DNA of 64,000 bases from Candidatus Onthousia faecavium. Lineage in GTDB: Bacteria; Bacillota_I; Bacilli_A; RF39; UBA660. The notes beneath the pieces are model-generated. The model was not told the DNA's origin. It ran no database searches and saw nothing but the letters and a program-made list of their open reading frames with translations. Of the stretch, positions 21,642-23,327 are shown in pieces (the first letter of the stretch is position 1; every line of letters starts with the position of its first letter). The translations under genes and the position numbers were made by a program. Location of the stretch: NCBI GenBank assembly GCA_018711135.1, contig DVIS01000031.1:17840-81839 (forward strand), read 5' to 3'.

Positions 21642-22097
21642 CTAAGCTCTTTCAAGTTTCTTAGACTCTTTATTATTTTTTTCTTTCTCTTTAAACATAA
21701 ATAGTATATCAGCAATTGCTAAACCATAAAGCATAATCTTAATATAAGCTACAAAGTTATCAAAATAATTAAAATCAACTCCATAACCATATTTTCCATT
21801 CAAAACCATGTTAGTATCAAAAATTGCTCTATAGCAAACAAAAATAATAGTTCCTAACACTAAACAACAAGTTAAATTATAAAATAAATTTTTTGTAATT
21901 CCAGTCTGTTTAAACAACATATTAATAATAAATATAATCAAAAGTACAACAAAAGGAATCAACTCTGGTAAAACACTAACTATACTTTTCTCTAAACGCA
22001 TATTCATTCTTACAAAAATAAATAGTGTCAAACCAAAAGCTGCTATAAAAAGAAGAAATTTAAGCCCATAAAATAATATATTAAATATTTTCTTCAT
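21642..22097 (-). CDS. small polytopic membrane protein (island gene 7)
   Basis: 151 aa, about 4 TM segments; start overlaps the stop of the upstream island gene. Confidence 0.35.
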   Translation of the reverse strand: MKKIFNILFYGLKFLLFIAAFGLTLFIFVRMNMRLEKSIVSVLPELIPFVVLLIIFIINMLFKQTGITKNLFYNLTCCLVLGTIIFVCYRAIFDTNMVLNGKYGYGVDFNYFDNFVAYIKIMLYGLAIADILFMFKEKEKNNKESKKLERA

Positions 22098-22098
22098 C

Positions 22099-22788
22099 TT
22101 AACCTCCTATTACAATATCCTTATACCAATTAGATATTTCTACAATAAGGTCTAAAGTATATTGGTAATTATTCATTGTATCAACATAACTATCTTCAAC
22201 TATATCAAAAAAATTTATTTTATTAACATTTGTACTAAAATAATAATGATCTGAGTTTTCTAAATTGTTTTGAACATAATTAGTTGAATTCAATAAATTA
22301 TTAATACTTAATTTAACATATGGCTCTATAACATTAAAATTAGGTAAAGTACTAACAGTATCTGTACTAAACATTGAATTTATTTGCATCGCTACACAAT
22401 CATTTAAAACAATATTTCTAAAATCTCTAGTAAAATTATAAGTATCTTGAATGTCAATTGTATCTAAATCAAAATATCTCATCATCTCATCACTTTCAAG
22501 TATCTCTAAACATGCTTCCATACGCAACTTTGCATTATTCAAACCATAAATATTTATAGATCCTGTGTAACTATCTTGATCATAAACAGCAATATTATTA
22601 CGAATCATATTTATTTTATTTTCTACACTAACCTTACTAGTATCATTATAAGCACTTACATCAGCTGTATCAGCTAACTCATCCATATGATAAAAATTTA
22701 AGAAAAGTAAGAAAAAAGAAAATCCAAAAATAAGTCCGGTAATCGTATAAGCAAACATACTAGCATACTCTAATAAAATCTTTTTCAT
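22099..22788 (-). CDS. N-terminally membrane-anchored protein (island gene 6)
   Basis: 229 aa with a single N-terminal TM; 4-bp start/stop overlap with the gene upstream. Confidence 0.35.
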   Translation of the reverse strand: MKKILLEYASMFAYTITGLIFGFSFFLLFLNFYHMDELADTADVSAYNDTSKVSVENKINMIRNNIAVYDQDSYTGSINIYGLNNAKLRMEACLEILESDEMMRYFDLDTIDIQDTYNFTRDFRNIVLNDCVAMQINSMFSTDTVSTLPNFNVIEPYVKLSINNLLNSTNYVQNNLENSDHYYFSTNVNKINFFDIVEDSYVDTMNNYQYTLDLIVEISNWYKDIVIGG

Positions 22789-23327
22789 TCTTCTTCCTCC
22801 ATCTGTATTTTAATTTCAAAATGATAATATTTATTCTGCCATTCTGTATTTTGGGCATCCTCTGCGACATAAATTCGCAATTGATAATTATTAACTTGTG
22901 AAGGAGCAATACTTCTAGTATCTAAAATATTATTTTTAATTTCATCTAAATCTCCACTCTTAATAACTTTACCATTCAATGACAACTGATATCTTAACTG
23001 ATTTCTTGATAATAGTTCTTTACTACTATAAGTTGCATCATCACTAATAATACTATCTTCTAGCAAGACATTATATACACTATCATTATCACTAAAATTA
23101 GTAACTTTAAATTCATAAGGTTTCAAACTTAAAGCTGTATTATCATCTATTGGAATTAAACCACTTTCATCTAAAACATTATTTGTATTACTTATCTCTA
23201 TATTTATTAAACTTGAATTATTGATTGATCCTTCACCATAAAAGAATCGATACCATAATATAGAGGTAGTAAAAATAAAGACAAACAAGGCAACCCCAGC
23301 TAAAACCAATAAAATAAACTTTTTCAT
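22785..23327 (-). CDS. divergent membrane-anchored paralog of the TasA-like proteins (island gene 5)
   Basis: N-terminal TM without the SipW-cognate motif. C-terminal NYQLRIYV...YYHFEIKIQ echoes YRLRMW...YKLRVNVYG of the four secreted paralogs. Confidence 0.4.
   Translation of the reverse strand: MKKFILLVLAGVALFVFIFTTSILWYRFFYGEGSINNSSLINIEISNTNNVLDESGLIPIDDNTALSLKPYEFKVTNFSDNDSVYNVLLEDSIISDDATYSSKELLSRNQLRYQLSLNGKVIKSGDLDEIKNNILDTRSIAPSQVNNYQLRIYVAEDAQNTEWQNKYYHFEIKIQMEEEE

Follow-up and report, generated by a model that had tools for sequence, protein, structure and literature searches.

How do TasA-type fibres start, stop and stay on the cell? The matter is unsettled, and the role of TapA is debated. 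The question is raised by a locus in a 64,000-nucleotide (nt) stretch of DNA from Candidatus Onthousia faecavium (contig DVIS01000031.1; the whole stretch is called the window below), in which four small secreted paralogs and a SipW-type signal peptidase are encoded together with a 180-amino-acid (aa) protein that has an N-terminal transmembrane (TM) helix, and with two further membrane proteins of 229 and 151 aa. We refer to the last three as p180, p229 and p151, and to the paralog gene next to sipW as parD. An earlier reading made from the letters of the DNA (hereafter, the sequence-only reading) had seen in p180 an uncleaved, TasA-like protein at the base or nucleation point of a fibre, analogous in function to TapA. 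Our analysis, which draws on sequence profiles, a structure model and analogy with known systems, leads us to propose with moderate confidence that p180 is an acceptor-only, membrane-anchored terminator and anchor of a distantly TasA-like donor-strand fibre, comparable with PapH/FimI or TafF rather than with the nucleator TapA.

Homology of p180 to the secreted proteins

In a BLASTP comparison, p180 and the paralogs matched over the YxLRxxV stretch only (E 2e-4). Family profiles compared with hhalign aligned over their full length (168 columns, probability 96%, E 4.6e-9), and when the TM and signal regions were removed the ectodomains still aligned over 128 columns (probability 76%, E 2.3e-5); the reversed sequence gave 0.2%, and controls that included unrelated neighbours gave 0.2-3%. 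The short motif resemblances quoted in the sequence-only reading are real and belong to this full-length relationship. An exhaustive HMMER search of a 50%-identity library with the p180 profile returned both anchored and secreted types, in total 1050 cluster representatives at E<=1e-3. Among them were p180-like proteins of 160-190 aa, secreted paralog-like proteins recovered at E down to 1e-24, and secreted types with (S/T)-Y-A-(W/L/I)-(F/L) motifs, some of them 400-815 aa long with BspA-type leucine-rich repeat (LRR), Ig-like, dockerin or DUF6273 extensions. Word-indexed homologue searches found close relatives only, and a cluster look-up of ten diverse members yielded no names. Given the alignment of the profiles over the full length and over the ectodomain, the low scores of the controls and the retrieval of both types by HMMER, the data support p180 as a true, though distant, paralog of the four secreted proteins.

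Five of the distant secreted relatives (P0157, P0170, P0200, P0232 and P0248; 570-815 aa) have the subunit domain at the N terminus, followed by BspA-type LRR, DUF6273, bacterial Ig-like or dockerin domains.

The SipW cleavage position

The secreted paralogs carry the motif V-G-V-S-[FY]-A↓A-F (the arrow marks the cleavage site), with Ser in 97%, the Ala before the arrow in 99% and the Ala after it in 97% of sequences. They thus show the small -3 and -1 residues and the [ST]-aromatic-A↓A-F arrangement of a SipW-type signal peptide, which p180 does not. A MAFFT alignment and hmmalign of all representatives place S22-I23-L24-W25-Y26 of p180 on S-Y/F-A↓W/A-F/Y; -3 (S/T/A) and -2 (Y/F) are retained in both secreted and p180 types. 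At -1, a small residue is present in all 45 secreted-type representatives (A 41, G 2, T 1, S 1), whereas 62 of the 78 p180-type representatives (79%) have a bulky one (F 21, L 20, I 8, Y 6, M 5, V 2); in the window's own p180 clade the residue is Leu in 86% and Met in 8%. The hhalign register is shifted by two residues from that of MAFFT and puts Tyr26, likewise bulky, at -1, so the conclusion holds in both registers, with Leu in one and Tyr in the other. The earlier statement that p180 has no SipW-cognate cleavage motif is therefore borne out in a precise sense: the frame of the motif is present, with Leu instead of Ala at -1.

The AlphaFold2 (AF2) model of p180 (mean predicted local distance difference test score, pLDDT, 81) shows an unbroken helix at residues 2-30, pLDDT below 50 at residues 33-38 and then an eight-strand beta-sandwich. 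Because the cleavage position is disabled and the N-terminal helix is hydrophobic, p180 is likely to be retained in the membrane, and is most probably, as judged from sequence and model, a signal-anchored membrane protein.

If p180 were nonetheless processed, whether through a SipW cut at a non-canonical site or through a housekeeping signal peptidase, it would be a secreted minor subunit, perhaps a tip or adaptor. We regard this as very improbable, even though the -3 residue is still Ser, T20-x-S22 forms a weak small-x-small motif and 19% of the p180-type representatives have a small -1 residue. The T20-x-S22 motif was judged unlikely to be an alternative cleavage site, as a hydrophobic helix of 27 residues encloses it; in the alignments S22 pairs with the conserved Gly at -5 of the paralogs (hhalign) or with their -3 Ser (MAFFT) and falls on -1 in neither register, and a cut there would leave a product starting with ILWYRFFY. 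The prevalence of bulky -1 residues in p180-type proteins, against 0% in the secreted relatives, likewise speaks against processing.

The donor-strand segment and the nucleator alternative

In TasA, residues 28-38 are the donor strand defined by cryo-electron microscopy (PMC9674648). Alignment of the paralogs with TasA sets paralog residues 30-42 on this segment, which in the paralogs is the best-conserved part of the mature protein (mean column conservation 0.78, vs 0.63 for the rest). The equivalent segment of p180 consists of the aromatic stretch with which the TM helix ends (W-Y-R-F-F-Y) and a 10-residue linker that is predicted to be disordered, and this linker (residues 31-40) is the worst-conserved part of the protein, at 0.41 vs 0.75-0.80 elsewhere. 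A conserved N-terminal segment that matches the donor strand is thus seen in the secreted paralogs and not in p180. Since its equivalent segment is a helix end followed by a variable linker of low model confidence, p180 could accept a strand and could hardly donate one; sequence and model together suggest that the acceptor body persists in p180 but not the donor strand, and the loss of this segment suggests that it would be unable to propagate polymerisation.

These features bear directly on the proposal of the sequence-only reading that p180 is a TapA-like base nucleator, from which polymerisation would start at the membrane and the fibre grow away. That p180 is predicted to be tethered, is single-copy and paralog-like and is coupled to sipW would suit such a role, and TapA has been described as both nucleator and anchor (PMC9674648, PMC9245690). 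However, the TasA/TapA and tafi models need a free N-terminal donor strand, and the p180 segment lies in, or is tied to, the TM helix, is variable and is predicted to be disordered. Neither profile similarity to TapA nor a SipW-cleaved N terminus that mimics a donor strand, as in TapA, was found in p180. Nor does p180 have a sequence match to TapA or to any solved structure: PDB sequence profile searches with the p180, paralog and p229 families gave nothing significant and no TapA (solved structure 6HQC; PMC9245690). We therefore consider a nucleator distinctly unlikely. What survives of the earlier interpretation is the fibre base, which fits a divergent paralog with a disabled cleavage position in a conserved, translationally coupled module with SipW, p229 and p151; the nucleator half is lost with the donor strand.

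Proposed route of assembly

According to the TasA model, a subunit frees its own N-terminal strand once its own groove has been filled, and TapA is thought to give the first strand (PMC9674648). Oligomers of Clostridium perfringens BsaA have been reported to be membrane-tethered, and the newest subunit has been proposed to keep its signal peptide until SipW cuts it (PMC11580942). Given this TasA/BsaA scheme, an uncut paralog that accepts a strand and has none to give would be the last subunit; growth would stop and the fibre would stay bound to the membrane.

In the assembly route that we propose, the locus would encode a fibre that depends on SipW and consists of small beta-sandwich subunits distantly related to TasA. 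Sec would insert the secreted paralogs, SipW would cut them after S-[FY]-A, and the freed, conserved N-terminal segment of each would become the donor strand for the next subunit. With a bulky -1 residue and without a conserved donor strand, p180 would stay in the membrane as a signal anchor and accept the donor strand from whichever subunit was processed last. Because it would accept a strand yet could neither be released nor pass one on, p180 would end the fibre and tether it to the cell. Finally, p229 and p151, the TM segments of which are strongly conserved, may form a membrane platform that holds SipW and p180 together.

Synteny, coupling and the accompanying membrane proteins

The eight genes of the locus form a co-directional run on the minus strand, flanked by a 3D-domain (yabE-like) gene and ksgA, and comprise four paralogs of 202-211 aa, sipW and then p180, p229 and p151. 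The open reading frames (ORFs), their coordinates and the TM counts by hydropathy (one N-terminal helix each in p180 and p229, four in p151) agree with the sequence-only reading, and the translational coupling that it had suggested is apparent at the junctions: sipW and p180 overlap by 4 nt, as do p180 and p229, p229 and p151 are separated by 1 nt, and a GGAGG-like Shine-Dalgarno sequence is present at each of the three junctions. The sipW ORF matches TIGR02228, the model for SipW-type signal peptidase I, at 96.7 bits (cut-off 51.85); with NF046067, the equivalog model for Bacillus SipW, it scores 100.4 bits (E 9e-29) against a cut-off of 190 and is thus SipW-like, below the equivalog level.

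We gathered 36 syntenic genome loci, from which 112 paralogs and 37 p180 orthologues were extracted. The gene order is the same in 36/36: the 3D gene, one to six variable paralogs (two to seven if parD is counted), parD, sipW, p180, p229, p151 and ksgA, with parD, sipW, p180, p229 and p151 present wherever the contig reaches and p180 always single-copy. The association of p180, p229 and p151 with SipW loci, a co-occurrence that the sequence-only reading had named as a check, is thus found in every genome locus. The order sipW-p180-p229-p151 is also kept, as far as the contigs reach, in 11 further loci that are more distant or independently sampled. Distant loci with this order (L037, L038, L040/41, L044 and L045; hidden Markov model E 1e-11 to 1e-66) lie in other genomic contexts, and some distant loci have only one upstream paralog. 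When p229 was used as the probe in an independent metagenome scan, six loci were found; p229 and p151 are adjacent in all six, and p180 and sipW lie upstream wherever the contig extends. Loci with a recorded source are mostly from gut or faecal samples. With the 1050 representatives, these sources suggest that uncultured Bacilli may commonly carry the module as an unannotated surface-structure system.

Among the secreted proteins, the three paralogs with the V-G-V-S-[FY]-A↓A-F motif are, by sequence, the candidate major fibre subunits. ParD is a separate orthologue that is better conserved than the other paralogs and lies beside sipW in nearly every locus; it may be a minor, tip, adaptor or initiator subunit. 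In one locus (L034:2133-5495, plus strand) the paralog position holds a 1120-aa protein with a paralog-like N-terminal domain and a long extension, in which Big_2 is borderline (22.2 bits vs a cut-off of 22.8); it looks like an adhesin-bearing subunit.

The membrane proteins p229 and p151 match no family in Pfam, NCBIfam or PDB sequences, and Pfam scans of every member of their alignments gave chance-level matches only (for example, Anthrone_oxy in 9/22 at E>=0.026). The description of both as having no recognisable family thus outlived the remote-homology search that had been suggested for them. The TM segment of p229 is strongly conserved, with invariant G18, F21, G22, F25, F26, N31, F32, Y33 and H34, and its ectodomain is all-alpha with conserved C93 and C131. 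The AF2 model of p229, built on a shallow alignment (best model pLDDT 78.7, the other four ~50), found only generic helical bundles in Foldseek. In p151, an outer loop is conserved (R90, D94, N96, M97 and GYG-DFNYF). Strict co-occurrence, translational coupling and conserved TM segments point to p229 and p151 as candidate partners of SipW and p180, and would fit the proposed platform.

The same observations could be accommodated if p180 were a non-structural assembly factor acting with p229 and p151, either as an uncleavable pseudo-substrate or regulator of SipW or as a membrane holder that caps new donor strands. The frame around the cleavage site is conserved despite the disabled -1 position (S/T/A at -3, an aromatic residue at -2, W at +1 and Y/F at +2), the conservation of the p180 TM helix (0.80) equals that of the ectodomain, the p180 gene overlaps sipW by 4 nt, and the highly conserved TM segments of p229 and p151 suggest intramembrane contacts. 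The beta-sandwich of p180, however, is conserved throughout, including the strands common to the polymerising paralogs, which would be needless in a mere ligand of the peptidase. We know of no precedent for such a factor and hold this explanation to be unlikely; a structural, strand-accepting p180 remains the reading that we prefer.

Resemblance to TasA and points against the proposed role

To what extent the family is TasA-like was assessed with a Bacillus subtilis TasA query sequence that was checked against 8AUR (mature chain from A28, AFND). The profile of the paralog superfamily aligned with TasA residues 5-81 in hhalign (probability 60%, E 8.8e-5; reversed control 0.1%). This alignment runs through the signal peptide into the mature protein, of which it covers the first ~55 residues, and sets SFA↓AF on TWA↓AF. 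The top matches of the p180 model in a Foldseek search of the PDB were mostly donor-strand pilins, including FimF/FimG, the Sulfolobus thread subunit 7PNB (Saci_0406), the TasA homologue AbpA (7UEG), CS20 and PapA. In NCBIfam, the window paralogs and p180 match no model. PF12389 (Peptidase_M73), the Pfam model of the TasA/camelysin family, has weak matches in 4/60 superfamily members (best E 6e-4), and one distant 815-aa relative passes its threshold (23.0 bits vs a cut-off of 22.5), over residues 4-62 only.

Several points weigh against p180 as the terminator of a TasA-like fibre. The direction of growth in TasA-type fibres is unsettled. The relationship to TasA is limited to ~90 N-terminal columns at 60% probability, and p180 and the four window paralogs have no match to PF12389 at E<=1. 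The Foldseek matches are weak (E ~1e-3, TM-score 0.3-0.35), and TasA itself is absent from the top 50 of the p180 model. Fifteen of the 78 p180-type representatives (19%) have a small -1 residue, so the p180 clade is not uniformly uncleavable, and about a fifth of the p180-type lineages may, by sequence, still be cleavable. Finally, one p180-like branch (P0245 and P0250) is not adjacent to sipW.

With only the N-terminal part aligned, PF12389 unmatched and the Foldseek matches weak, the family is most fittingly described as uncurated and distantly related to TasA-type subunits. The TasA-like fold of the sequence-only reading is weakly supported: the N-terminal alignment and the cleavage sites in register speak for it, while the lack of a PF12389 match and the absence of TasA from the top 50 structures do not.

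The members of the P0245/P0250 branch (L042:255-764 and L043:2709-3188) lie after an ABC-ATPase fragment or a CofD-family gene and are followed by a small unrelated ORF, so that the anchored domain occurs in at least one further genomic setting.

The paralogs might also not be fibre subunits at all, and might instead form a surface layer, a spore surface, an adhesin or an archaeal-type IV-pilin-like structure, with the three membrane proteins serving another envelope function. Such a role would sit well with the lack of any Pfam or NCBIfam family, with weak matches to archaeal pilins (6NAV at E 0.05, Pilin_N in 4/60) and with the nearby sporulation genes (yabG, spoVG and yabP/Q). A link to spores is conceivable, given these neighbours and the fact that TasA was first found as a spore-associated protein. 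We nevertheless find a non-fibre role quite improbable, as the dedicated SipW, the cleavage site in the TasA register, the donor-strand motif, the adhesin-type fusions and the pilin-type fold matches all fit a pilus-like fibre. We rejected the idea that the paralogs are archaeal type IV pilins: the PDB matches are insignificant (6NAV E 0.05, 8TIB E 0.14, 8FJS E 1.7), the Pilin_N matches (best E 0.012) are at chance level, and the operon contains no gene for a prepilin peptidase, ATPase or platform protein. These matches are probably driven by a hydrophobic N-terminal helix followed by a beta-rich domain.

Comparison with known systems

Fibres with a dedicated peptidase and donor strands, and accessory anchors for them, are already known. 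Chaperone-usher pili (PapH/FimI) and sortase pili (the basal pilins) use a single-copy paralog of the major pilin that is incorporated last, accepts a strand or linkage and cannot propagate, and so fixes the length and attachment of the pilus. The features of this class recur in p180, which is homologous to the presumed major subunits, is encoded by a single-copy gene beside the assembly genes and, with the predicted helix at residues 2-30 and the disabled cleavage position, has its own apparent means of retention at the cell. FimF/FimG-type pilins are also among its best fold matches. In contrast to these pili, the window locus has no chaperone, usher or sortase, and the anchor would be an uncleaved signal-anchor helix in the cytoplasmic membrane.

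Like the TasA/TapA/SipW system of B. subtilis and the BsaA-SipW system of C. perfringens, the locus encodes a dedicated SipW-type peptidase together with small beta-rich secreted subunits. Unlike mature TasA, which has 234 aa, the mature subunits have ~180 aa and do not match PF12389. There is no homologue of TapA, CapP or BsaC at the locus, which has a seemingly uncleavable paralog and two membrane proteins instead. In contrast to TapA, which undergoes cleavage and donates a strand, p180 is likely uncut and non-donating.

A further parallel is TafF of the haloarchaeal tafi, fibres that depend on a signal peptidase; it combines a pilin-like domain with a TM segment and has been proposed to anchor them (PMC11821415). 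As in p180, a subunit-like domain is joined to a membrane span in a cluster with its own signal peptidase I (TafD), and TafF has been proposed as the strand acceptor and anchor (PMC11821415); the cluster also holds additional membrane proteins of unknown role (TafG and TafB). However, TafF is much larger and has its anchor at the C terminus, its role has only been modelled, and the subunits of tafi use the Tat pathway. TafG belongs to DUF5305, which p229 and p151 do not match, and there is no detectable sequence relationship. The Pyrobaculum ABP operon combines a TasA-like donor-strand pilin with the four-TM proteins Pcal_0903/0907/0908 and with Pcal_0904, which has one N-terminal TM helix and a beta-rich ectodomain; these membrane proteins have been suggested to serve in anchoring (PMC9245690). 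No dedicated peptidase is encoded there, and the likeness to the window proteins is one of description only.

We found no description, in the searchable literature, of an uncleavable subunit paralog hard-wired to sipW and to two membrane proteins. For the start, stop and retention of TasA-type fibres, the genetics of the locus give one lineage a clean answer, namely a paralog of the subunits with its cleavage site switched off, tied to the gene for the peptidase and to two genes for membrane proteins. On a bolder and rather doubtful extension of this proposal, SipW, p180, p229 and p151 would be an unrecognised membrane machine that assembles, length-limits and anchors TasA-like fibres in monoderms, with p180 as a built-in pseudo-substrate that turns the last step of polymerisation into a permanent tether. 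If true, this platform, dedicated to assembly and anchoring, would be the first of its kind to be described for Gram-positive TasA-like fibres.

Features of the locus and its surroundings

Terminator-like hairpins are found at four sites in the region, vs 1.1 expected. Those after the first and third paralog genes would give these paralogs high expression, with less read-through into parD-sipW-p180-p229-p151. The positions of the genes, hairpins and p180 segments are collected in Table 1.

Table 1. Position and character of the features of the fibre locus, numbered from the first letter of the window.
Feature	Position	Strand	Character
p151 gene	21642..22097	-	ORF, 151 aa; four TM, conserved outer loop, basic C-tail
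p229 gene	22099..22788	-	ORF, 229 aa; one N-terminal TM and all-alpha ectodomain; C-terminal GG
p180 gene	22785..23327	-	ORF, 180 aa; predicted TM helix aa 2-30, variable linker aa 31-40, predicted 8-strand beta-sandwich aa 41-176
p180 linker, aa 31-40	23208..23237	-	Matches the C-terminal part of the paralog donor-strand segment; the N-terminal part corresponds to the TM-helix end, aa 25-30
Disabled SipW cleavage motif of p180, S22-I23-L24-W25-Y26	23250..23264	-	Homologous to S-[FY]-A↓A/W-F of the secreted relatives
sipW, SipW-type (archaeal/ER-type) signal peptidase I	23324..24016	-	4-nt overlap with the p180 start
parD, secreted paralog adjoining sipW	24070..24705	-	S-x-A↓T-F-T-Y-T motif, charged N-terminal extension
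Terminator-like hairpin	24768..24789	-	3' of the third paralog gene, upstream of parD-sipW-p180-p229-p151
Three secreted paralogs	26191-26826, 25452-26081, 24799-25407	-	V-G-V-S-[FY]-A↓A-F motif
Terminator-like hairpin	26137..26164	-	3' of the first paralog gene

The window is chromosomal, with dnaA, dnaN, yidC and mnmE at a switch in GC skew (~52-58 kb), and the nearest genomes are those of uncultured gut Bacilli, Candidatus Onthousia among them. The GC skew flips sign at ~54-56 kb, within the region of ~51500-58900 where dnaN and dnaA on the minus strand face yidC and mnmE on the plus strand. These features mark the replication origin of the chromosome, which lies ~30 kb from the fibre locus. 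The locus is surrounded by the conserved, sporulation-associated yab region (19344-21588 and 18240-19283), in which yabG, veg, spoVG, yabP, yabQ and a divIC-like gene were recognised from the appearance of their sequences. Just upstream of tatD and ~1.6 kb from the first paralog gene, a 323-aa ORF (28450-29421, minus strand) carries a DDE transposase domain (PF01609, E 1.4e-7).

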